Below are positions 1,276 to 59,158 of a stretch of DNA of 64,000 nucleotides, piece by piece. The notes beneath the pieces are model-generated. The model was not told the origin of the DNA and did not search any database. It was given only the letters and a program-made list of their open reading frames with translations. This stretch comes from Candidatus Peribacteria bacterium RIFOXYB1_FULL_54_35 (lineage in GTDB: Bacteria > Patescibacteriota > Gracilibacteria > Peribacterales > Peribacteraceae). Location of the stretch: positions 946 to 64,945 of the forward strand of contig MFYJ01000001.1 in NCBI GenBank assembly GCA_001787755.1. The letters run 5' to 3'. The position numbers were made by a program, and so were the translations under genes. Positions within the stretch are counted from its first letter, which is position 1. The number at the start of each line of letters is the position of its first letter.

Positions 1276-1292
1276 TGGTGGGCCAGGAGGGA
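1276..1292 (-). repeat. duplicate of tRNA-Tyr 3' end (att-like direct repeat)
   Basis: tggtgggccaggaggga versus tggtgggccgggaggga at 1694-1710, 16/17 identical, includes the CCA end. Confidence 0.85.
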
Positions 1293-1304
1293 CCCCTCCA
1301 CTCG

Positions 1305-1541
1305 TCATATGAGACGTTTATTCCGGAAGGCAAAACCTGATGATGACTTCAGGTACTTCTCAAAATCCAATGCTTTCTCTCTTGTCTTGAATGCTGAGTA
1401 GAAAACAAGTTCCTCTGGTTCAATGCGACTCGTTGTTGGCGAGGAATGGTTCTTATGTCTCACAAGCCTCTTTTTTAAATCTCTTGTAAACCCAATGTAG
1501 AATTGCCCATTCTTGAGTTTGAGGATGTATACAAAATACAT
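1305..1541 (-). CDS. small GIY-YIG nuclease (UPF0213/SLX1-like), 78 aa
   Basis: MYFVYIL...FYIGFT..L.KRL..H...FEKYLKS. ATG at 1541 has TATGAT 6 nt upstream. Confidence 0.9.
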   Translation of the reverse strand: MYFVYILKLKNGQFYIGFTRDLKKRLVRHKNHSSPTTSRIEPEELVFYSAFKTREKALDFEKYLKSSSGFAFRNKRLI

Positions 1542-1555
1542 AGGCAGATCATAAT

Positions 1556-1696
1556 GCCCCACTTCGCTTTGCTGCGCAAAGCTCCGCGGGGCACACTTCG
1601 CACTTTCGTAACTGGAGATGGCGCGCCACACAACTTCGCCTGCGGCTACGCGGTGTACCACGCGAAGCTCTTCGTATAGCGAAGAGCGAAGTGTGG
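1556..1696. repeat. cluster of three REP-like palindromes (CGDAG-hairpin-CGAAG core)
   Basis: 1556-1593 gccccacttcgctttgctgcgcaaagctccgcggggca; ~1629-1656 cttcgcctgcggctacg; 1657-1696 accacgcgaagctcttcgtatagcgaagagcgaagtgtgg. Confidence 0.75.
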
Positions 1697-1778
1697 TGGG
1701 CCGGGAGGGATTCGAACCCCCGAAGGCAAGGCCACCTGATTTACAGTCAGGCCCGTTTGACCACTTCGGTACCGACCC
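1694..1778 (-). tRNA. tRNA-Tyr (GTA)
   Basis: Reverse complement folds as a cloverleaf: acceptor GGGTCGG/CCGGCCC, anticodon arm CCTGA-CTGTAAA-TCAGG, long variable arm, GGTTCGAATCC, encoded CCA. Confidence 0.97.
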
Positions 1779-11969: not shown

Positions 11970-12047
11970 GGTTTATGAACCTCGGCAACGGAGTAATATG
12001 GAACACGAAAATTAGGTAAGCTATCTGAACCATTTCCTGCCAATTCT

Positions 12048-12458
12048 ATGGAAGCGATCACACAAATCATTCTTTCCCTTCTAGGTGTAATCGGAATTGG
12101 TGGAATCATCACTGCCTATTTCAACAGATTGAAGGAGATTGAATTTCAGAAGTTGGAACAAAAGCAAAAACGTTATAAATCATCGCTTCTCTACATGGAT
12201 GCTTATTTTGAACCTAAGAATATCAAGTATCTTTCAAGTAGACAGCCCGATATAAATAGTCCTAAAGATGTCTTGGAATATCTCAAAGCTGAATACCATG
12301 AGATGTTGTTATATGCATCTAAAGAAGTGATACTCGCAGTAAAACGATTTTTAGAAAATCCAAATAGAGCAAACTTCTTTGCTTCTGTCTTGGCCATGAG
12401 AAAAGATTTGTGGACCAAGAAAGTTGATGTCGATATTGAGGAAATATGCATTCAATGA
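12048..12458 (+). CDS. hypothetical membrane-anchored protein, AT-rich
   Basis: 136 aa with N-terminal TM helix; low GC relative to flanks. Confidence 0.7.
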   Translation: MEAITQIILSLLGVIGIGGIITAYFNRLKEIEFQKLEQKQKRYKSSLLYMDAYFEPKNIKYLSSRQPDINSPKDVLEYLKAEYHEMLLYASKEVILAVKRFLENPNRANFFASVLAMRKDLWTKKVDVDIEEICIQ

Positions 12459-12513
12459 AACATACCCACATAATTGCATCCAGACTTTCTCTCTGGCTTC
12501 TAATGCCGAAATG

Positions 12514-29223: not shown

Positions 29224-29395
29224 ACAAGAAACAAGATACAAATAATAAGATGCAAACAAATGCCAAATCACACTGCCCAAGATCCAAACAATCCTTATTG
29301 GAATTTAGAGATTGCATATTCTTTGGAACGGCTTACAAATTGCACCTTGGACCTTGTTTGGAACAACTTGTTCTTTGCATCTTGGATCTTTCTTC
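29224..29395. repeat. 7-nt periodic intergenic inverted repeat
   Basis: acaagaa acaagat acaaata ataagat gcaaaca ... cttgttc tttgcat cttggat. Confidence 0.7.
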
Positions 29396-29440
29396 CTGAG
29401 GAAAATTGAATTAAGAACAGAATTCAGCTATAATGCTTCG

Positions 29441-29953
29441 ATGACACAAATAGAAGACATTGCCAACGGAGCCCAACAGATTGTTGCAAATATTATGCAG
29501 AATGAAGACAGCTACACGGAAGTGGTTGAGGTACTGGAGCGCTCAGGCCTCGTCATCGGCCTGGATGTGTTTTCTGTTCTCATTGCAGCAGTCATCGGAT
29601 ACATCGGTGTCATTGTGATGACCTATGGCTGTTTCAAAGGTGTTTGGGACTTTTCCCTCAGCATCGGAAAACGCACAACACACAGGCACCTCCCGATGAT
29701 CCGCATAGAACTGGGCAAGCACCTGGCACTGGGACTGGAATTCCTGGTAGGCAAAGATATTGTGGAATCCATCGTCCACCCGACGTGGAACGATCTCGGC
29801 AAGCTTGGTGCCATCATCGCTCTGCGGACCGTCGTGACCGTCTTCCTCTCGCGCGAACTCAAAGAAGTGGAAGAGGAACTGAAAGTCGAAGGGCAGGAAC
29901 TCGCGCTGGAAGAGCGGCGTTCGAAACTGGCGAGGCAGCAGAAGAGCGCTTAG
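29441..29953 (+). CDS. DUF1622 family membrane protein
   Basis: RIELGKHLALGLEFLVGKDIVESI..PTW.DLGKLGAIIALRT; TATAAT 6 nt before ATG 29441. Confidence 0.88.
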   Translation: MTQIEDIANGAQQIVANIMQNEDSYTEVVEVLERSGLVIGLDVFSVLIAAVIGYIGVIVMTYGCFKGVWDFSLSIGKRTTHRHLPMIRIELGKHLALGLEFLVGKDIVESIVHPTWNDLGKLGAIIALRTVVTVFLSRELKEVEEELKVEGQELALEERRSKLARQQKSA

Positions 29954-30041
29954 TTTGAGGGAGGTAAATACTTTATGTTTTAGAAAGAACATAAATCTCA
30001 CATTTGGGTTACAATCTTAGTATTGTTTCCCTTTTTTAGTG

Positions 30042-30851
30042 ATGCAAAGCAACTACTACGTTTACGTGTATATCGACCCACGTAACTTTGAAGAGTTTTA
30101 TTATGGCAAAGGAAAGGGCAACCGAAAGAATGCTCATCTGAAAGACAAAAAGGATTCCGAGAAAACAAACATAATCAAGGCCATACGAAAAGAAGGTTTG
30201 GAACCTATTGTAAAAGTAATTGCAAAAGACCTTACAGAGAAGGAAGCCTTATTGATCGAAAAAACTCTTATTTGGAAATTAGGAAAAAATCTGACCAATC
30301 TCTCATCGGGTCATTTTGCGGACAAATTCAGAAGGCACCACACTTTCCATCTCAATCTTAACGGCTTTGATTTTGAAAATGGCCTTTATTACGTAAATGT
30401 TGGCGAACGAAAAGGTGGGAACAGATCTTGGATTGATTGCAGAAAATTCGGCTTTCTATCTGCAGGCCAACATCCCAAATACAGCAAACCCCTTCATACT
30501 TTGAATAAGGGTGACATTATTGTCGCCTATCTCAAATCTAAAGGATACGTCGGGATTGGGAAAATTACCGCGACAGCACAACGAGTAAATGATTTCAGAG
30601 TGAATGGTAAGCCTCTGCAGCACATGCAGTTATACAACAAGAACATCTTCAAAAACTGCCACAACAAAAATTCCGAGTATCTTGTTAAAGTTAAATGGAT
30701 CAAATCCGTTTCAGCAGAAGAGGCCAAATGGGAGGCCGGTTTATATGCAATAGAATTGATAAAAGCCTCATTAGAAAACCAGGATGCAACGATTAAATTC
30801 CTCGAAAAGGAATTCAAAGTCAGTTTTAGTGATCTATTATATGGGGCTTGA
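30042..30851 (+). CDS. GIY-YIG nuclease (LEM-3/ANKLE1-like) with C-terminal domain, AT-rich
   Basis: YYVYVYIDPR...FYYGKGKGNR...EALLIE..LI...LTN. C-terminal KGDIIVAY...GYVGIG...VKW pattern. Confidence 0.8.
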   Translation: MQSNYYVYVYIDPRNFEEFYYGKGKGNRKNAHLKDKKDSEKTNIIKAIRKEGLEPIVKVIAKDLTEKEALLIEKTLIWKLGKNLTNLSSGHFADKFRRHHTFHLNLNGFDFENGLYYVNVGERKGGNRSWIDCRKFGFLSAGQHPKYSKPLHTLNKGDIIVAYLKSKGYVGIGKITATAQRVNDFRVNGKPLQHMQLYNKNIFKNCHNKNSEYLVKVKWIKSVSAEEAKWEAGLYAIELIKASLENQDATIKFLEKEFKVSFSDLLYGA

Positions 30852-30863
30852 GAGGCATTAAGA

Positions 30864-30908
30864 TCAATTCCTCTGAATCACAATTCTGTCTTCAATCTCC
30901 TGATCAAC
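30864..30908 (-). pseudogene. diverged duplicate of the 3' end of the adjacent ATPase gene
   Basis: Encodes VDQEIEDRIVIQRN* versus VDQEIEDRIGIQRS* at 30982-31026. Confidence 0.8.
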
Positions 30909-30960
30909 CCTTCGACAGGCTCCAGCCTCCGCGCTTCGTGCTTCGGCCGACAGGCAGGGT
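30908..30960. repeat. nested REP-like palindromes
   Basis: cccttcgacaggct|ccagcctccgcgcttcgtgcttcggccgacagg|cagggt. Confidence 0.75.
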
Positions 30961-30981
30961 AAACTTCTTCCCTGTCTGCTT

Positions 30982-33603
30982 TTAGCTCCTCTGAATTCCG
31001 ATGCGATCCTCAATCTCCTGATCAACGAACACCTTTTTGCGGGCGTACTTCAGGCGGCTGTACTCCTTCACAAGCTTAGCAAGTTCCTCGTTACGATCAG
31101 ACTCGTCCCAGATGGTACTCAAGCTGAAGGGGCGTGACTGCACGTTGTTGATGTTCAGTTTGCAGTAACAGTTGAAATTCGGAATGCCTATGACGTCCTG
31201 CTCAGAGAGAACCGGAGCAAACTCCTTGGCCATGTACTCCGCATCCTCCGCACCGATCTTGAAACTCATGATGGTACCCACGTTCCCGAAGACCGCATCG
31301 CGCATTTTGGTGCTTGATTCGCCATACGCAGACGTCTTCCCTACCAGCTGCCCGATGTACTGGTGCGCCATGATGAGCGCAAGTTCATACTTACGTGCCT
31401 CAGAGAGGATAGTAGCGAAGGCGTCGGTCACGAAATTCTGGAACTCGTCCACATACAGGTAGAAGCGCTTGCGGTCCGCCCTCGGGACATCTGCACGGCT
31501 CAGGGCAGCCATACTGATCTTATTCACGAAGATGAGGCCGAGGAGTTCCGCATTCGTATCGCCGATTTTTCCCTTGGAGAGATTCACGAGAAGTACCTTC
31601 TGGGTGTCCATCACTTCCCGGATATTGAAAGCGCTTTTGGGCTGCCCGATGATGTTGCGCATGGTCGTATTCGTGATGAACGGACCGAACTTCGAACTGA
31701 AGTAAGGAATCATCTCCTGCTTCTCGCGTTCCCCTGTCTGGGCTATTTCATGGTCCCAGAAACTCCGCACCACAGGATTCCCGATCTTGCTGACCTTGTA
31801 ACGCTGGAACTCTTCGTCCACGAAGAGGCGCGGAACGTCGATGAGCGTCGCACCCTCCTCCTCGTCGTCCATCAATGTGAGACACCCGTTGCGGAAGTAG
31901 TGCTGGATGCGCGGGCCGAAGATCTCGTTTCCGAAGAGCTTGATGAAAATCTCCATGGCATCGAGAGCTGCACGGTCCTTCTCTTCCGGTGTTCTCGCCT
32001 CCAGCATATTCAGCCCCATGGGCCGGTTGATGTCGGAGGGATCAAAGACGATGACTTCCTTCGCACGGGACCTGGGCGTGTGAGCGAGCGCATCCTCCAC
32101 CAAGTCTCCATGAGGATCGACCATGCAGAGGCCATCACCATTCGCAATGTCCTGGCGGGACATCCAGCTCAAAAGTGCTGATTTTCCCGAACCGGATTTT
32201 CCGATGATGTAGTGGTGGCGTGTCCGGTCTTTTCCGAGGAACCGGACAGGTGTCTCGACGCCACGGTACTTGTTGTTCCCAAGCAGTATGCCTTCTGCAG
32301 GTGTATCGGGCGGCGGCGGCAGGACTTTGTAGGTACTCCACTGGATGACAGGAATTTTGTTGTAGCGGCTGTCCGGGAAGTGGTAGAGGCCTGCGAGCTC
32401 CTTCTCTACGAGAAGACACTGCGTATGGTAGTAGCCATTCAGCCGCCGCTTCCACATGGAATAGATGAACCTGGCATTCCACCTGAGCGGCATGATTTCC
32501 GTAAACATGCGCCTGTTCACGAAGTAGTTCCCGTAGCTATCTTTGAAGGAGTTGAATGCCACCTGCATGTTGTTCGTGATCTCGATAGCCCTCTGCCACG
32601 TGCTCGAAGAAGCAAGAATGCGTACAGAGCAGTGGTAGAAACTCATGCCGCCCTTCTCCCCCATGCGCTTGTAGAGTTCCTCCTCCGGCTGAATCATACG
32701 GATGAATGCATCCCCCTGCTTTGCCCCCGGAGCCATGTTTTTGGACGGATCGGAGGAGAACATGTCGAAGAAATAGCCGAGGAGAGCAAGCCCGGGAATA
32801 TGCTTGAGAAAATTATCCTTTTTCCCTTTGAACCTCATGGACGCGAAATCCTGGGATTTCTTCCCCCACCTGTTGGAGAATGAAGGAGTCATCACCATCT
32901 GAATGGCCGCCACTTCGTCTTCCTGCAGCTTGCTGAGAACGTTGGCAATACCATTGAGCGGATCATCCTGCATCTGCTCATAGAAACGCAGCGGATACAT
33001 GAATGGCCTCTTGAGTATCATGTTGTACCCAACAAGCTGCTTGCCCTTCGGCCAGATATCCGGAACTTTCTCCGGATACACTTCTGCGTCCGGATAGAAT
33101 GCAGTGATCTGCTTCTCGACGATAGAAGCAAACTTTGGCTGCGTTACCACGTAGAACACCAGCTCCCCCTTATCGAGGAACATCTCCATGCTGATGGTGA
33201 GATAGCGGAAAATCCAGAAGTGCAGCGTCTGCCAGATGGTGAGACTGCGCACTTCCCAGAGCGCGCGGTACAGCTGCTCCATCACAGCCATCTTCTCTTT
33301 GAAATCTTTATCCGTTCGCTTTTCCTGGTCAACCTTGCTGTCACTGCGGGGCTGGATAATCTTCAGCGCCACGAGCTTCTTCGCTTGGCGCAGCGCATAG
33401 AAAAAGCGGGCGTACTTTTTGAAAAACCTCCACAGCAGATAGGCAGAGAGAATCCAGAGCAGTGCTTCAATGGAATTGCCTGCAGGATCCTCGGTGATCC
33501 AATCCCACAAAGTGAACCAGATATCCGCTTTGAGCACACTCGTACCCAGCGCTGCAATACCCAGCAGAAGAGGCCAGAAAAACAAGGAGAGAAAGCCAGC
33601 CAC
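30982..33603 (-). CDS. VirB4/VirD4(TraD)-like P-loop ATPase with N-terminal TM segments
   Basis: HHYIIGKSGSGKS, DPHGDL, LYVDEFQNF, SEARKY, AHQYIGQL. Confidence 0.88.
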   Translation of the reverse strand: MAGFLSLFFWPLLLGIAALGTSVLKADIWFTLWDWITEDPAGNSIEALLWILSAYLLWRFFKKYARFFYALRQAKKLVALKIIQPRSDSKVDQEKRTDKDFKEKMAVMEQLYRALWEVRSLTIWQTLHFWIFRYLTISMEMFLDKGELVFYVVTQPKFASIVEKQITAFYPDAEVYPEKVPDIWPKGKQLVGYNMILKRPFMYPLRFYEQMQDDPLNGIANVLSKLQEDEVAAIQMVMTPSFSNRWGKKSQDFASMRFKGKKDNFLKHIPGLALLGYFFDMFSSDPSKNMAPGAKQGDAFIRMIQPEEELYKRMGEKGGMSFYHCSVRILASSSTWQRAIEITNNMQVAFNSFKDSYGNYFVNRRMFTEIMPLRWNARFIYSMWKRRLNGYYHTQCLLVEKELAGLYHFPDSRYNKIPVIQWSTYKVLPPPPDTPAEGILLGNNKYRGVETPVRFLGKDRTRHHYIIGKSGSGKSALLSWMSRQDIANGDGLCMVDPHGDLVEDALAHTPRSRAKEVIVFDPSDINRPMGLNMLEARTPEEKDRAALDAMEIFIKLFGNEIFGPRIQHYFRNGCLTLMDDEEEGATLIDVPRLFVDEEFQRYKVSKIGNPVVRSFWDHEIAQTGEREKQEMIPYFSSKFGPFITNTTMRNIIGQPKSAFNIREVMDTQKVLLVNLSKGKIGDTNAELLGLIFVNKISMAALSRADVPRADRKRFYLYVDEFQNFVTDAFATILSEARKYELALIMAHQYIGQLVGKTSAYGESSTKMRDAVFGNVGTIMSFKIGAEDAEYMAKEFAPVLSEQDVIGIPNFNCYCKLNINNVQSRPFSLSTIWDESDRNEELAKLVKEYSRLKYARKKVFVDQEIEDRIGIQRS

Positions 33604-40579: not shown

Positions 40580-40657
40580 GGCGAGCTTAGCTCAGTTGGT
40601 TAGAGCGGATGGTTGTGGTCCATCAGGTCAAGGGTTCGATCCCCTTAGCTCGCCCCA
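40580..40657 (+). tRNA. tRNA-His (GTG)
   Basis: G-1:C73, acceptor GCGAGCT/AGCTCGC, anticodon arm GATGG-TTGTGGT-CCATC, T arm AAGGG-TTCGATC-CCCTT, CCA. Confidence 0.97.
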
Positions 40658-41082
40658 TCCGTCTTCGCGGTGTGAGGGCTACGAAGTTCCGTTCGTTGTT
40701 CCCGTAATGATCATAGCGATACCGCTTCGACGCGATTGGGGCTTGTGTTATAGTTCGACACTATGCATTACGTCTACATTCTCGAGTCTGCACTCGATGG
40801 CAGGCACTGGTACATCGGCGTAACAAGCAACCTACAGAAACGCCTGGAAGAACATAATGCGGGTGATTCTCTGCACACGAACAAATTCAAACCATGGAAA
40901 CTGAAGAGCTACACAGCCTTTACTACACGAGAACAAGCTGAAAAATTTGAGCGGTACCTGAAATCCAATTCAGGACGCGTGTTCGCAAAAAGGCACTTGT
41001 GAGCCGCGGCGTAGCGGTATCGCAAAGCTGGACCCAAGAATGATGGCATACGCATCAAATGCCCTCACGCCGCGAAGCCGGG
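40658..41082 (+). mobile_element. GIY-YIG cassette bounded by nested inverted repeats
   Basis: Outer IR 40658-40679/41061-41082 (19/22); inner IR 40716-40734/41005-41023 (17/19); flanked by 21-bp direct repeats. Confidence 0.7.
40763..41002 (+). CDS. small GIY-YIG nuclease (UPF0213/SLX1-like), 79 aa
   Basis: MHYVYIL...WYIGVT.NL.KRL.EHN.G...FERYLKS; extended -10 TGtTATAGT 8 nt upstream. Confidence 0.93.
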   Translation: MHYVYILESALDGRHWYIGVTSNLQKRLEEHNAGDSLHTNKFKPWKLKSYTAFTTREQAEKFERYLKSNSGRVFAKRHL

Positions 41083-41103
41083 CGATCCCCTTAGCTCGCC
41101 CCA
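41083..41103 (+). repeat. duplicate of tRNA-His 3' end
   Basis: cgatccccttagctcgcccca identical to 40637-40657. Confidence 0.92.
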
Positions 41104-42439: not shown

Positions 42440-42788
42440 CAGAAGAACTTGAAAAAACACCGGGAGCGCAGCGACAGAGGATGCAATTCCGGCAGAGCCA
42501 ACACATCTCGCTGAATTAGGAATTCCCGTATTGCAGAAAAGACCACGGGGGGAGCACAGCCTTAGTAAGAAGCATGCGCACTGGAAAATACATGAGTTAT
42601 CAAGTACTTGAGCCTTTTCCATTGAGACTCAGTGTGCTAGCGTGGGCTTCACGTGCAAGGAACCGTCTATCGCACTTACACATGTCCGAAGCGCAGTACA
42701 GAACCCCCATCCCTCTTCGTTCATCTCCACTCCGTTCCGCTGAAACTCCGCCGGGATCTCCCCAGTCACTGTCCATCCCATACCCCCC

Positions 42789-44138
42789 ATGACACAATCT
42801 GTGTATCGAACACCGAAAGGCACCCACGACGTCCTCCCGGAAGACCACATCTTCATGACGTACATCAAGAAAGCCGTCCGCCACCGCGCGAGGCAGGCCG
42901 GCTACAAGCGCATAGAGACGCCAATGTTTGAGAACCGCACGATCTTCGAGCGCGGCATTGGTGAGCACACGGACATTGTGGAAAAAGAACTCTTCATGGT
43001 CTCCTCCAAGCACGAAGATGAAGACAATGGCCCGGAGTTCGCCCTGCGTCCCGAGTTCACCGCCAGCATCTGCCGCAGCTATATAGAACATGGCATGCAG
43101 CAGCTCCCGCAACCCGTGGAACTCTATGCCATCGGACCCTGCTTCCGTCATGACCGTCCGCAGAAGGGGCGCTACCGCCAGTTCAACCAGTTCGACTTCG
43201 AGATCATCGGGCTCAAAGACCCCAGCTTGGACGCACAGCTCATCCATGTGCTGAGCAAAATTTTGGATGACCTCAAAATCCTCAAGCGTCTCCGCCTGCA
43301 GATCAACAACATCGGCACCCCCGAGAGCCGCAAAGCGTACCTGGATGCCCTGAAAGACTTCTTCATCGGAAAAGAGCGCAATCTGCCGGCCCTGGACCGC
43401 TCGCGCCTGGAGACCAACCCCTTGCGCCTTCTCGACTCCAAGGAAGAGGATACGCAGATCCTGCTCAAGAGCGCACCGACACTGGACCAGTTCCTGGATG
43501 ACGAGAGCAAGCAGTACCACGAAACCGTGCTGGAGTACCTTGGAGCACTTGGCATCCAGTACGAAGAGAACTCCTCACTTGTACGTGGTCTCGACTACTA
43601 CACACAGACAGTCTTTGAGTACTGGGACGAAACGACAGGCGCACAGAACGCAGTGGGAGGCGGAGGAAGGTACGACCGTCTCATGGAGCTCCTCGGCGGG
43701 AAAGACACGCCGGGCATCGGTTTCGCCTGCGGCATGGAACGCATCGCCTGGCAGATGGCACAGACAGGCGTGAAGCCGCCGAACAAGGACCAGGTGGACG
43801 TGTTCGTCGCCCAGCTCGGACCGGAAGCGAAGAAAACCTGTCTCATGCTCATCTCGCAGCTGCGCGAAAAGGGCGTACACACTATCGGCGCCCTCGGAGA
43901 AGCAAGCCTGAAGAGCCAGATGCGCCTGGCTGACAAGTTTGGCGCCCGCTACACGCTCCTCCTGGGACAGATGGAAGTGAAGGAAGGCGTGATTATTCTC
44001 CGCGACATGGCAGCCGGGAAGCAGAAGCAGATCCCCTTCAAAAATGCCATTCCGGAAGTCACCAAGCTCATCGGGGAAAGGAACCTAGATACCTACACCA
44101 TCAAGGATAAGATTGGGGACACGGTGGATGAGGACTAG
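42789..44138 (+). CDS. hisS: histidine--tRNA ligase
   Basis: PKGTHD, ALRPEFTA, FRHDRPQKGRYRQFNQ, LVRGLDYYT, GGGRYD. Confidence 0.97.
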   Translation: MTQSVYRTPKGTHDVLPEDHIFMTYIKKAVRHRARQAGYKRIETPMFENRTIFERGIGEHTDIVEKELFMVSSKHEDEDNGPEFALRPEFTASICRSYIEHGMQQLPQPVELYAIGPCFRHDRPQKGRYRQFNQFDFEIIGLKDPSLDAQLIHVLSKILDDLKILKRLRLQINNIGTPESRKAYLDALKDFFIGKERNLPALDRSRLETNPLRLLDSKEEDTQILLKSAPTLDQFLDDESKQYHETVLEYLGALGIQYEENSSLVRGLDYYTQTVFEYWDETTGAQNAVGGGGRYDRLMELLGGKDTPGIGFACGMERIAWQMAQTGVKPPNKDQVDVFVAQLGPEAKKTCLMLISQLREKGVHTIGALGEASLKSQMRLADKFGARYTLLLGQMEVKEGVIILRDMAAGKQKQIPFKNAIPEVTKLIGERNLDTYTIKDKIGDTVDED

Positions 44139-44324
44139 AAAAGATGAGAATGGAAAACGGATTCTCATCTCGCGCACCAGCGCCTGCACCTGGCTCTGCA
44201 TCTCCACTGATTCCATAGGAGAAAAACTCAACAAATTTTGCGTATAAGATGCAAAGAAGAATCTTGGAATACAGATTATGCGTATAGGAAGGAGTTATAT
44301 GTTATTCTTCCTCCACCTTCGTCT

Positions 44325-44771
44325 ATGGGGAAAAAGACCAGCACATTCATCTATTGGGCACCAAGGATACTCTCCATTCTCTTCTTATTGTTCTTGGCAG
44401 CGATGTCATTGGATGTTTTCTCCATGGAACTCAATTTCTGGCAAACAGCTGTGGCATTGTTCATGCACAATATTCCCGTACTGATCCTGCTGGTCATCCT
44501 CATATTTTCCTGGAAATACGAAATTGTCGGAGGGGTGGCTTTCATCCTCGCAGGAATTTTCTATATTGCACTGGTTTCGATGACTGCTCTAAAAACAGGT
44601 TTCGAATGGTATTACGTTGCATGGGCTGCGCAGATTTCTGGAGTCGCTTTCTTCATAGGAATACTGTTTCTCATCGGCTGGTCCAAAAAGAAAAGAATGT
44701 TGCAATCCAACCGAACTCACACATCTCCTCCCGAAGGAAAGAACGGAGAGGGAGAGGTTACATCACCCTGA
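44325..44771 (+). CDS. hypothetical membrane protein (about 4 TM)
   Basis: WAPRILSILF...HNIP...WKYEIVGG hydrophobic protein. Confidence 0.75.
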   Translation: MGKKTSTFIYWAPRILSILFLLFLAAMSLDVFSMELNFWQTAVALFMHNIPVLILLVILIFSWKYEIVGGVAFILAGIFYIALVSMTALKTGFEWYYVAWAAQISGVAFFIGILFLIGWSKKKRMLQSNRTHTSPPEGKNGEGEVTSP

Positions 44772-44802
44772 CAATACACATCCCTTCCCCTATACTGCTT
44801 CT

Positions 44803-56662: not shown

Positions 56663-59158
56663 ATGCCCACCTTGAACCAGCTATTCCTGGGCCTCGGCTC
56701 TGCTGCATCTGTCTTCATCGGCGTGCATGTCGTGCTGTGGCTGTGCCGGCTTCTCGCGGATTTCCGCCGTGAACGCGACCTCGTCTTCCTCCAGATTCTT
56801 GTCCCGAAAAAGGAAAGCAAAGAAGAGAAAGAAACGGAATCCGAACGCTACTCCTCCGGCCAGGACTTCCGTGAGGTGCTGGGGGTCATGGATCACTTCT
56901 ACCAATCGCTCCACAGTCTGTACCACGGAACTGCAAGGCGGTGGTGGAGGGGGCAACCCTTCATCTCCTTTGAGTATGCTGCACTGCAAGGCGAAATCCT
57001 CTTTTTCGTCGTCTGCCCGCGGGCCATTGTCCACTTGATAGAAAAACAAATCACCTCCTTCTATCCCGATACCATCATCGACGAAGTGGAGGACTACAAC
57101 ATTTTCACAGACAAATCCATCGTTGCGGCACGGACACTCATCCCGCGAGGACCATTCACGAAAATATTCAAAACATATCAGCAGCTTAAGAGTGATCCTC
57201 TGAGCACCATGACAAACGCCTTCTCGAAGCTGAAAGAAACTGAGGGGGCCGCCGTGCAGTTCGTCCTCCGCCCAGCCAAATCCGGCTGGCAGAAAAAACT
57301 GCAGAAAGAAGCCCAGAACCTTTTGAATCCCAAGAAGAAAAAAGGGCTCAGATGGTGGAATCCCATTTCCTGGCTCAGCACCGGCTTCAGTCTCCTCACC
57401 ACAGGAGATGATGTGGTAGATCTGCAATCTGAGAGCAAAGCAACGGGCGAGCGCGTGTCTCAGATGGTAGAGGAATACAGTAAAACTGTGGATGAGAAGG
57501 CAAGCAGCCCCGGTTTCACAGCAATGGTCCGTGTCGTCACCTCCGCAGATACTCTCCTCCGTGCACAGAACCTCCTCCAGGAAGTCTGTGCCGCATTCAC
57601 GCAATTCAGCGACATACGCGGGAACCGCCTCAGGAGATCGAAGCTCTCCAGCAAGAGAAACACCACCATCAGATTCATCCGGCGTTCCCCCCGACTGGGC
57701 ATTCCTGCGGGTATCACAAGCCCCGTGATGCTCCTGGGAGCCCCTGAGCTCACAAGTTTCTTCCACTTCCCCAACATCAAGTACAACAAAGTAGAAACCA
57801 TTAAATGGCAGAACTTCAAGGTGGCACCAGCACCCAAGAACATACCAACAGAGGGCTTGTTCCTTGGAACAAACACCTACCGGGGAGAGAAACGCAAGAT
57901 ATACATGGGCAACGAAGACCGCTTCAGGCATTTCTACATCATAGGGCAGACCGGCACGGGGAAATCTTCGATCATCCAGCTCATGGCACGCCAGGACTTC
58001 CATAACAATATTGGCTGCTGTGTGGTGGATCCGCACGGGTCACTCATTGAGGATCTGCTGCCGTACATTCCGCGCGAACGCGCCGACGACGTGGTGTATT
58101 TCAATCCCGCAGACACGGAAAGACCCATGGGACTCAACCTGCTGGAGGCGGAGACTCCGGAAGAGAAAGACCTTGTCGCACTCGATGCCATGAACATGAT
58201 GGTGAAGATGTTCGGGGAAGAAATTTTCGGTCCGCGTATCCAGGACTACTTCCGCAACGGGTGTCTGACACTCATGGATGATGAGGATGAAGGCGGCGCC
58301 ATCACCGACCTCGTGAAACTCTTCACGGACGAAGAGTGGCAGCGGTACAAAGTATCGAAAGTGAAAAACCCCATTGTCCGCGCATTCTGGGAAAAACAGA
58401 TGGTCCAGACCGGACAGCGTGAGAAGCAGGAAATGATCCCCTACTTCGCAGCGAAGTTCGGCCAGTTCTACACCAATACGCTCATCCGGAACATCGTGGG
58501 GCAAACACGCAGTGCCTTCGATATCTCCAAGTGTATGAATGAGGGCAAGATCCTGCTCATGAACCTGAGTAAAGGACTTGTTGGAGATATCAACGCCCAG
58601 CTCCTCGGTTTGATCATCGTGAGTAAAATACAGGTCGCAGCCATGCGCAGACAGCGGCAGACAAATGAGCAGCGCCGCGACTTCTACCTCTACATCGACG
58701 AGTTCCAGAACTTCGTAACCCCTTCCATTGAGTCCATTCTCTCCGAAGCCCGCAAGTACCGCCTTGGCCTCATCCTCGCCCACCAGTACATCGATCAGCT
58801 GGAAAAAGAGAGCAAGATCTCCGGCAATATCAGCCTGAAGGGCGCAGTCTTCGGCAATGTGGGCACGATGATGTTCTACAAGATCGGTCCGCAGGACGCC
58901 GAAGTATGTGCGAAGGAAATGGCTCCGGTCTTCTCCGAACAGGACCTCATTAACATCGATGCTTTCAAAGGAGCCATGAAACTGAGCGTGGAGGGCCAAC
59001 CTTCCAGACCGTTCTCCATAGAGGTACCACGCCCCTGGCTCGACAAAACGTACCCCAAAGACGAGCAGGCAGCCGAGGCGTTCAAACAGCTCTCCCGCCT
59101 GACGTACGGCCGCGCGAAAGACTTCGTGGATAGGGAGATAATGAGGAGAATCGGGTAG
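56663..59158 (+). CDS. VirB4/VirD4(TraD)-like P-loop ATPase (paralog of 30982-33603)
   Basis: HFYIIGQTGTGKS, DPHGSL, LYIDEFQNF, SEARKY. Confidence 0.88.
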   Translation: MPTLNQLFLGLGSAASVFIGVHVVLWLCRLLADFRRERDLVFLQILVPKKESKEEKETESERYSSGQDFREVLGVMDHFYQSLHSLYHGTARRWWRGQPFISFEYAALQGEILFFVVCPRAIVHLIEKQITSFYPDTIIDEVEDYNIFTDKSIVAARTLIPRGPFTKIFKTYQQLKSDPLSTMTNAFSKLKETEGAAVQFVLRPAKSGWQKKLQKEAQNLLNPKKKKGLRWWNPISWLSTGFSLLTTGDDVVDLQSESKATGERVSQMVEEYSKTVDEKASSPGFTAMVRVVTSADTLLRAQNLLQEVCAAFTQFSDIRGNRLRRSKLSSKRNTTIRFIRRSPRLGIPAGITSPVMLLGAPELTSFFHFPNIKYNKVETIKWQNFKVAPAPKNIPTEGLFLGTNTYRGEKRKIYMGNEDRFRHFYIIGQTGTGKSSIIQLMARQDFHNNIGCCVVDPHGSLIEDLLPYIPRERADDVVYFNPADTERPMGLNLLEAETPEEKDLVALDAMNMMVKMFGEEIFGPRIQDYFRNGCLTLMDDEDEGGAITDLVKLFTDEEWQRYKVSKVKNPIVRAFWEKQMVQTGQREKQEMIPYFAAKFGQFYTNTLIRNIVGQTRSAFDISKCMNEGKILLMNLSKGLVGDINAQLLGLIIVSKIQVAAMRRQRQTNEQRRDFYLYIDEFQNFVTPSIESILSEARKYRLGLILAHQYIDQLEKESKISGNISLKGAVFGNVGTMMFYKIGPQDAEVCAKEMAPVFSEQDLINIDAFKGAMKLSVEGQPSRPFSIEVPRPWLDKTYPKDEQAAEAFKQLSRLTYGRAKDFVDREIMRRIG

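Follow-up and report, generated by a model that had tools for sequence, protein, structure and literature searches.

How does a gene come to end twice? The question is raised by a 64,000-nucleotide (nt) stretch of the genome of Candidatus Peribacteria bacterium RIFOXYB1_FULL_54_35 (GenBank assembly GCA_001787755.1, contig MFYJ01000001.1, positions 946 to 64,945), which as a whole is called the window here. In its middle, a gene for a VirD4/TraG-like ATPase is followed, beyond a short spacer, by a second and diverged copy of its own last codons, on which an AT-rich gene for a LEM-3-like GIY-YIG nuclease converges. An earlier note, made from the sequence alone, took the fragment for a recombination scar of foreign DNA and tied it to the nuclease gene. 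We consider it probable, though well short of certain, that the fragment is the displaced half of a small cassette, in which two copies of the gene tail enclose a repeat that we call M, and not a by-product of the nuclease gene. The genome of the window (1.56 Mb) is referred to as G000, further G-numbers denote genomes and L-numbers denote loci or metagenome lineages. The parts of the locus are the following.

30982-33603, minus strand: gene for the VirD4/TraG-like coupling-type ATPase, 873 amino acids (aa); Pfam TrwB_AAD_bind 1.4e-9, T4SS-DNA_transf 8.9e-8, and TraG-D_C
30982-31026, minus strand: intact (proximal) tail, VDQEIEDRIGIQRS*, joined to the ATPase gene as its last 14 codons and stop codon
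30909-30981, minus strand: 73-nt spacer holding the M mini-element and separating the two tails
30955-30967, minus strand: left part of M, GAAGTTTACCCTG, within the spacer
30923-30954, minus strand: 32-nt insert nested in M, between its left and right parts
30909-30922, minus strand: right part of M, GAGCCTGTCGAAGG, directly preceding the V codon of the displaced tail
30864-30908, minus strand: displaced tail copy, VDQEIEDRIVIQRN*, beyond the spacer

The two tails, which start 118 nt apart, are identical at 35/45 nt and 12/14 aa, the same values that the earlier note had given. Their similarity has sharp limits, the V codon at one side and the stop codon at the other. Six of the ten differing nucleotides sit in codons that preserve their meaning (E, D, R, I and stop), a silent share that was reached with P = 0.0008 in 5000 simulations of ten random substitutions. 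The guanine-plus-cytosine (GC) content of the fragment is 37.8%, compared with 46.7% for the intact tail and 53.2% for the ATPase gene. Two further claims concerned the spacer. The KKF codons (AAGAAGTTT) had been taken for a continuation of the gene, but they are part of the repeat itself: the left and right parts of M, when joined, give the consensus GA(A)GTTTAYCCTGAGC..YTGYCGAAGG, which is found at other loci, and the same place in G001 and L220 reads GGAAGAAGCCTG, with no TTT. As for the nested palindrome, two small hairpins do form, but the folding energy of the spacer is ordinary (z = -0.06 against 200 shuffles).

The same layout recurs at the ATPase gene in at least 11 other lineages, including G001, G038, G061, G212, G283, G364, L215, L216, L220 and L221. 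Orthologues of the ATPase were detected in 41 of the 41 relatives searched; 30 loci were kept and 29 tails read, and more than one tail was present in two genomes of this set, namely G001 (same genus), with three tails and M-type spacers between them, and G038 (another family), with two. A strict pattern of two tails within 60-260 nt matched 7/401 genomes of the class. The double-tail pattern is also matched by G360 (L039), with a spacing of 182 nt and no obvious M. A metagenome scan for the junction between M and the tail returned 11 loci, eight of which are ATPase tail duplications, and added four new lineages (L215, L216, L220 and L221); the tail counts exclude L214, L217 and L223, where an adenylate-kinase-like start comes after the end of another gene. 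The spacers end in ..CGAAGG directly before the first tail codon, which is V, or I in G283; the spacer of G061 ends in ..CGAATGG and has an extra ..GCGAGTCGAATGG between M and the codon.

Presence or absence at the same ATPase site, a mark of homing-type cassettes, varies among relatives: G002 has a single ATPase tail followed by ybaB, and in G001 the tail array is succeeded directly by the convergent DUF1622 gene, with ybaB beyond it. For G003, which is closest to G000 (193/200 nt), the contig breaks off 145 nt short of the tail, and none that covers the locus turned up in a DNA search. No joint that skips the 118-nt unit appeared in four runs, which is no evidence of absence, since assembled contigs were searched. 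By tblastn, none of the genome or metagenome tail-duplication loci contains a LEM-3-like gene, and none of the genome loci contains a small GIY-YIG gene (in the metagenome loci the search covered the LEM-3-like gene alone).

The divergence between the copies is shaped by coding. Over the tail pairs of seven genomes, 48 of the 56 differing nucleotides lie in codons of unchanged meaning, 47/56 occupy third positions and the stop codons have been preserved. The silent share of the differences is 10/10 in G364, 11/11 in G212 and 11/12 in G283, and the metagenome pairs show silent versus other differences of 6/2 (L216), 10/4 (L220) and 10/2 (L221). Near-identical pairs also occur: units 1 and 2 of G001 differ at 0 nt and the pair of G038 at 1 nt. 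These sequence comparisons support the view that the tail copies differ like alleles under protein-level selection. Neutral decay of a local duplicate, the outcome that the earlier note had set against its own interpretation, cannot account for differences that are mostly silent and at third positions.

Comparison of G000, L215 and L220 reveals that the tails are mosaics. For this analysis each tail was split into segment A (nt 1-26) and segment B (nt 27-45). In the body of the ATPase gene, identity to G000 is 309/330 for L215 and 295/330 for L220. The intact segment A of G000 agrees with those of L215 and L220 at just 19/26 positions and has the host-preferred codons CGC, ATC and GAG, while its intact segment B equals that of L215 at 19/19, with adjoining spacers alike at 72/73. 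Among the displaced copies, segment A is alike at 24-25/26 in all three lineages. Displaced segment B is shared by L215 and L220 (18/19, with a common downstream flank); that of G000 agrees with these at 7-8/19 and with the intact IQRN* end of L220 at 15/19. We read the four segments of the locus as follows.

31001-31026, minus strand: intact segment A, probably resident, with lineage-specific, host-preferred codons
30982-31000, minus strand: intact segment B, which appears to travel with the spacer (19/19 to L215)
30883-30908, minus strand: displaced segment A, probably cassette-borne and foreign (25/26 to L220, 24/26 to L215, 22/26 to its own intact tail)
30864-30882, minus strand: displaced segment B (..VIQRN*), a putative remnant of an earlier resident end

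The segment-wise mosaic suggests that the moving unit consists of intact segment B, the spacer with M and displaced segment A, the outer segments being resident. The silent E, D, R and I changes fall in displaced segment A, and would therefore set foreign against resident DNA; its codons GAA, GAC, AGA and ATT are non-host, AGA accounting for 1/53 Arg codons in the ATPase gene. The earlier resident tail is read as one of the IQRN* type, which appears still to function in L220. The only clear sign of decay in the displaced tail is a Val in the place where each of the 30 orthologue tails listed has Gly. Such a mosaic is the co-conversion pattern that would be expected of homing-like gene conversion. 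The foreign ortholog proposed by the earlier note fits one part of the fragment: the copies differ as selected alleles and the first 26 nt look foreign, but the last 19 nt are read as resident. A search of the 29 orthologue tails identified no donor, the best match being 30/36 over the first 36 nt of the fragment (G002), which cannot name a donor because G000, G001 and G002 are ~77-78% identical throughout the gene.

Another locus provides what we take, from sequence comparison, as one clear import event. At G000:C13 (~73200), G003 carries an extra, more proximal unit. The gene body of G003 matches G000 at 54-58/60 positions per window up to the junction, after which its new intact tail matches at 37/60, and its displaced copy is identical to the functional G000 tail over the first 27 nt (27/27). 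Co-conversion of flanking host sequence, which marks homing-type cassettes, is found both in this locus and in the tail mosaic of the ATPase gene.

The repeat M is not confined to the ATPase gene. The sequence GAGCYTGYCGAAGG has 20 copies in the 1.56-Mb genome, and the 17-mer core of M, CCTGAGCYTGYCGAAGG, is present in 45/61 family genomes with up to 20 copies per genome; a reversed-pattern control gave 0 in every one of the 61. One exact 17-mer variant occurs at at least 125 loci in genomes of many phyla. No Rfam 15 family reached its gathering score at the locus or at six orthologous loci, and M copies of other phyla gave sub-threshold RF02901 matches only (22-30 bits against a threshold of 97). 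An exact 38-nt piece of the spacer had 0 matches in the metagenomes of the Joint Genome Institute. Contiguous pairing of at least 3 bp beside the core was seen in just 1/17 copies; when a bulge was permitted, pairing arms of at least 5 bp were present in 10/47 copies compared with 5.4% of shuffled controls, a modest enrichment and no rule. Likenesses of M to ribozymes, k-turns and integron attC sites were judged by eye and dropped as unsupported. The literature searched does not contain the 17-mer core, nor does it describe M, mobile COG2827/YhbQ genes or tRNA genes of bacteria that have small GIY-YIG cassettes beside them.

Several single copies of M stand out. When compared with L220, L215 has an extra insert of ~80 nt after the displaced tail, in which a perfect hairpin surrounds an M variant (GTGTCACCCTGAGCTCTGACGAAGGGTGACA); it is a fresh M insertion with no gene end duplicated. 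In L156 (a Vulcanimicrobiota record) the exact 17-mer is followed directly by a T-arm, acceptor end and CCA, and in L103 (a Staskawiczbacteria record) it lies immediately next to the 3' end of an oppositely oriented tRNA gene.

Duplicated ends next to M are also found at other genes of G000. A downstream copy of their own 3' end accompanies 16/45 tRNA genes (upstream control, 0/45). These copies are 13-30 nt long and lie 76-1114 nt downstream; most begin in the T-loop after GGTTC, 16/16 end at CCA, an M-like ..CGAAGG precedes them and several are exact over 20-30 nt. Among the protein genes, at least three besides the ATPase gene have first or last codons duplicated next to M: one gene tail (CYLQTVH*) and two gene starts antisense to M, the start of a HIT-like gene being present three times. 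Overall, duplications are 13-48 nt long and end exactly at CCA, a stop codon or a start codon, and cassettes measure 40-430 nt and carry at most one open reading frame (ORF), of the GIY-YIG type. The number of units at tRNA-Asp, tRNA-His and the HIT-like gene differs among close relatives, and G001 is empty at the HIT-like gene.

Small GIY-YIG genes are part of this picture. Eight of the 13 small PF01541 (GIY-YIG) matches lie just downstream of a tRNA gene on the same strand, and in five cases of the 13 the gene is enclosed in a bracket of repeated tRNA ends (Gln, His, Tyr, Pro and Lys). Across 60 family genomes, counts of the M core and of PF01541 are correlated (Spearman rho 0.40, with no correction for phylogeny). 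Two of the bracketed genes are in the window.

40581-41103, plus strand: tRNA-His cassette, with the tRNA at 40581-40657, a small GIY-YIG ORF at 40763-41002 (protein of 79 aa, 40763-40999), 21 nt of the tRNA 3' end repeated exactly at 41083-41103 and 21-nt inverted repeats at 40659-40679 and 41061-41081
1276-1778, minus strand: tRNA-Tyr cassette, with the tRNA at 1694-1778, a small GIY-YIG ORF at 1305-1541 and a 16/17 copy of the tRNA 3' end at 1276-1292

The earlier note had pointed out that duplicated gene ends adjoin each of the three GIY-YIG genes of the window, and as an observation this stands; two of them, the small ones, are inside the duplication, but the LEM-3-like gene is outside.

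Three other tRNA loci have unusual structures. At the tRNA-His locus of G003:C5 (L061/L064), ~1.3 kb more than in G000 follows the displaced tRNA-His end: the tRNA end is repeated with 65 nt of flank, after which come two AT-rich ORFs and then a degenerate tRNA end (..CTCCCCA), the first ORF encoding a MerR/excisionase-like helix-turn-helix fused to an ATPase-like part. Downstream of tRNA-Met (G000:C7:115619-115694), at a distance of 148 nt, is a near-whole second tRNA-Met-like sequence with D-arm, anticodon loop, T-arm and CCA and an insert of ~55 nt after the D-arm. Downstream of tRNA-Gly(tcc), at G000:C7 ~42690-42870, an element includes a 70-nt block in duplicate and a stretch of N; its copy number is uncertain because the assembly gap falls inside the repeat.

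The layout, its recurrence, the selection-shaped divergence, the mosaic, the one import event and the turnover among relatives are the observations from which we propose a mechanism. M sits inside the last 14 codons of the ATPase gene, with the displaced copy directly after its CGAAGG end, and the gene stays whole because these codons are present twice. The cassette, made up of the end of the intact tail, the spacer with M and the start of the displaced tail, would pass between related lineages by recombination inside the tail repeats, in a gene conversion that, as in homing, also co-converts the sequence at either side. In G000, 30883-31000 would have been imported, and 31001-31026 together with 30864-30882 would be the remainder of the resident tail. 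A small GIY-YIG nuclease may cut the uninterrupted target, to be repaired from the cassette-bearing allele. The larger members with a GIY-YIG ORF would probably supply the DNA break, the ATPase unit being a non-autonomous member. The LEM-3-like gene may have entered separately, as a defence gene, into the short spacer between convergent genes.

Several points weigh against this mechanism. The ATPase cassettes have no ORF, any enzyme that moves M is a putative one, and the model leaves the first formation of a cassette at a new gene unexplained. The mosaic rests on three lineages and segments of 19-26 nt. Codon usage does not point consistently to one copy as the host-like one: it is the intact copy in G000, G212 and G061 and the displaced copy in G364 and G283. 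Whole-tail codon-usage likelihoods were mixed over five genomes, and those for G000 became sensible once the tails were split in two segments. The same-genus pairs G364/G397 and G212/G178 were also considered for calling the resident tail and rejected as too distant (83-86% identity). The differences between G000 and G003 at tRNA-Asp and the HIT-like gene are equally readable as deletions between repeats. The junctions have no clear consensus, being GGTTC|GA in tRNA T-loops, GTGTTC|GTTGATC at the ATPase gene and others elsewhere, and a clear M end is seen in 2/5 bracketed GIY-YIG cassettes, those of His, Tyr and Lys being degenerate. Finally, a contig of run X20 over 30907-31248 supports the mechanism as a hint only: it has four listed differences at 30947-31020 (spacer and tail) and 14 at 31021-31117, where they fall at every third base (gene body), but its depth is 5.5 and 23/44 differences are unlisted.

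A different account dispenses with a dedicated nuclease. In homology-facilitated illegitimate recombination, a cell would take up DNA of relatives; one homologous crossover would fall in the gene and the other end would be joined at or near M, which would be a passive portable homology patch or a fragile hairpin, identical across species. The exact 17-mer in 45/61 family genomes and at least 125 loci of many phyla would suit such a patch, as would the variable boundaries of the mosaic and the ATPase cassettes devoid of ORFs. But the CGAAGG end of M is always joined to the same codon at the ATPase gene, and to the T-loop at many tRNA genes, and so fixed a junction points to a defined joining step. 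The GIY-YIG ORFs inside five brackets and the correlation between M and GIY-YIG counts also argue against it, and we regard this account as unlikely, while granting it some standing.

Duplicated tRNA ends also bring integrases to mind. Recombinase elements might have integrated into the 3' ends of tRNA and ATPase genes, duplicated their attachment site and mostly shrunk since. Duplications from T-loop to CCA are reportedly typical of integrase attachment sites, serial arrays have their older copies further out, and the 1.3-kb insert at tRNA-His of G003 has a MerR/excisionase-like ORF. Against this, no cassette contains the single PF00589 tyrosine recombinase of the genome (C7:256823-257353; serine recombinases were not searched), and the cassettes, at 40-430 nt, carry a GIY-YIG ORF at most, not a recombinase gene. 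Moreover, the tail pairs of protein genes differ at the majority of silent sites and share no identical core, and gene starts are targeted too. We consider scars of site-specific integration distinctly unlikely.

The proposal that the fragment came together with the AT-rich nuclease gene, from a donor with this gene located behind its ATPase orthologue, and that the nuclease caused the scar, requires a closer look at the gene and its neighbour.

30039-30851 (ATG at 30042), plus strand: gene for a LEM-3-like GIY-YIG plus PUA/EVE-like reader protein, 270 aa (PF22945)
29312-29953, plus strand: DUF1622 gene (Pfam DUF1622 1.3e-22); in G001 (locus L006) it is convergent with the tail array and no LEM-3-like gene separates the two

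The earlier note was right that the gene is AT-rich and converges on the fragment: its GC content is 38.6% against 53.2% for the ATPase gene, and merely 12 nt separate the two stop codons. The fragment (37.8% GC) fits the nuclease gene better than the intact tail, and its AGA codon, so rare in the ATPase gene, makes up 4/10 Arg codons in the LEM-3-like gene. However, the tail-M-tail layout exists in at least 11 other lineages at loci where the LEM-3-like gene is missing, and that gene sits outside the unit, contrary to what a homing gene that caused the scar would do. L215, with the same spacer, has no LEM-3-like gene within ~300 nt downstream. The AT-rich codons of the fragment recur in the displaced copies of L215 and L220. 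Among relatives the LEM-3-like protein was found in 3/61, and the homologues of G001 and G047 are placed elsewhere, away from any ATPase tail or copy of M: in G001 (69% identity) on another contig beside a phosphoglycerate-mutase-like gene, and in G047, where the N-domain is matched, among terminase-like and recombinase-like ORFs. The G001 homologue is enclosed by 26-nt inverted repeats (L002 1477-1502 and 2293-2318, 88% complementary), which begin at the stop codon of the neighbouring gene; it looks like a discrete cassette. The region between the displaced tail and DUF1622 varies among close relatives.

The protein itself is built like a restriction enzyme. It has the GIY-YIG domain of PF22945 (E 5.1e-9, 36.7 bits, cut-off 27), and 1784 homologues were found at E <=1e-5, the best 120 of 1784 being 63-71% identical and including proteins named from Patescibacteria and Bacteroidota. 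In PADLOC the N-terminal part (residues 5-101) matches PD-T4-3 (PDLC04031, 2e-13), and the C-terminal part the candidate family PDC-S11 (1.8e-37). A profile search of PDB sequences gave 9u75 ('5hmC specific restriction endonuclease PD-T4-3', 5hmC being 5-hydroxymethylcytosine) at 2.7e-11. An AlphaFold2 model has a mean predicted local distance difference test (pLDDT) value of 74, with C-terminal blocks at 64-94, mostly ~90. Its top Foldseek match is again 9u75, over 247 columns, and further matches are PH1033, VcaM4I, YTH, EVE and ASCH structures; from 9u75 to ASCH, probabilities are 0.96-1.0 and target-normalised template modelling (TM) scores 0.22-0.52. A PD-T4-3-related N-terminal GIY-YIG domain and a C-terminal modified-base reader fold, the two parts of such a type IV enzyme, are both recognizable. 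PD-T4-3/CMoRE is a type IV restriction enzyme that degrades 5hmC or glucosyl-5hmC DNA (PMC12923530). The LEM-3-like protein likewise has an N-terminal GIY-YIG domain followed by a C-terminal domain, but identity to PD-T4-3 is ~21%, and its C-terminal half fits PDC-S11 and EVE/YTH-like folds instead. Judged by sequence and predicted structure, it is a probable modification-dependent restriction nuclease, not a homing enzyme. From the PADLOC, PDB-profile and Foldseek matches, the gene is best read as a horizontally acquired putative defence nuclease, inserted between the displaced tail and DUF1622, and we hold its joint import with the fragment to be highly improbable.

A local tandem or target-site duplication at the insertion of M, followed by neutral decay of the outer copy, could claim the near-identical pairs of G001 and G038, several tRNA copies and a similarity that extends 10 nt beyond the stop codon in G038, and may have a place in the first formation of a cassette, but is scarcely credible for this locus, being contradicted for the diverged pairs by the third-position differences and kept stop codons, and by duplications that end at functional boundaries, with flanks that are unrelated even where the copies are identical and diverge far more than the displaced ends do.

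Elsewhere in the window, a second VirD4-like ATPase paralogue is encoded at 56663-59158 (831 aa, 57% identical over the last 295 aa); relatives have 2-5 matches each to the ATPase query (3-4 in most). Upstream of DUF1622, the sequence 29227-29400 matches ~10 places on several G003 contigs at 73-90% identity and is probably another small dispersed repeat. Other islands of low GC content (36-47% against ~54%) lie at 1-1200, 12000-12500 and 44200-44800. Their ORFs, of which 574-1179 and 12048-12458 have no Pfam family and 44238-44771 encodes a DUF7670 protein, are probably acquired genes.

Were the cassette interpretation of the duplicated ATPase end true, it would explain tiny GIY-YIG genes beside tRNA genes and stray tRNA and gene ends in small bacterial genomes, as the work of a mobile system that is harmless because the interrupted end gets rebuilt. 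It would provide a concrete route by which species exchange the last codons of essential genes, and a testable candidate for a minimal homing system of one ~80-aa nuclease and one ~20-nt motif. For annotation it is a warning that a nuclease gene adjoining such a scar need not be its cause; here it is probably an anti-phage enzyme. More tentatively, M might be the mark of minimal end-replacement elements across bacteria, some with only an ~80-aa GIY-YIG nuclease, which home into the termini of tRNA and conserved genes, exchange these ends between species and create sites where other genes can land, here a defence nuclease for example. The host gene would never be broken, because each such element carries its own copy of the end that it interrupts.

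How does this compare with known systems? Small palindromic repeats of the REP (repetitive extragenic palindromic)/REPIN and MITE (miniature inverted-repeat transposable element) types offer one comparison (PMC3337134, PMC3733652). M is like them in being short, dispersed, partly palindromic and present in many copies per genome, with non-coding derivatives. It differs in lying at the junctions of duplicated gene ends and in the span of its exact 17-mer over many phyla. Unlike REP/REPIN sequences it has no GTAG/CGTC tag, and no RAYT-type transposase turned up, no search having been aimed at one. The duplications are not those of a MITE with target-site duplication, which would be of fixed length, identical at birth and neutrally decaying.

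In organelles, insertions of free-standing homing-endonuclease genes supply the host gene with a substitute end, behind which the old C-terminus persists downstream, as in atp6 of Allomyces mitochondria. Here, too, the gene is kept intact by a second copy of its terminal codons, the copies differ like orthologues, and in tRNA cassettes a GIY-YIG gene lies between the copies. In contrast to the organelle insertions, our cassettes belong to a bacterial chromosome and also target gene starts and tRNA 3' ends, an endonuclease ORF is missing from the ATPase unit, and the junction is marked by a conserved 17-25-nt motif (M). Integrative elements, for their part, insert in the 3' ends of tRNA genes and duplicate them as attL and attR. 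They share with our cassettes the direct repeats from T-loop to CCA and the serial arrays at one tRNA gene, but our cassettes have no recombinase, with one in the whole genome, measure 40-430 nt and include protein-gene pairs with no identical core. The feature is real, and on these comparisons its nearest kinds appear to be the endonuclease-linked end duplications of organelles and the attachment-site repeats of tRNA genes; it differs from both in its minimal size, its conserved M motif, its range of targets and its lack of a recombinase.

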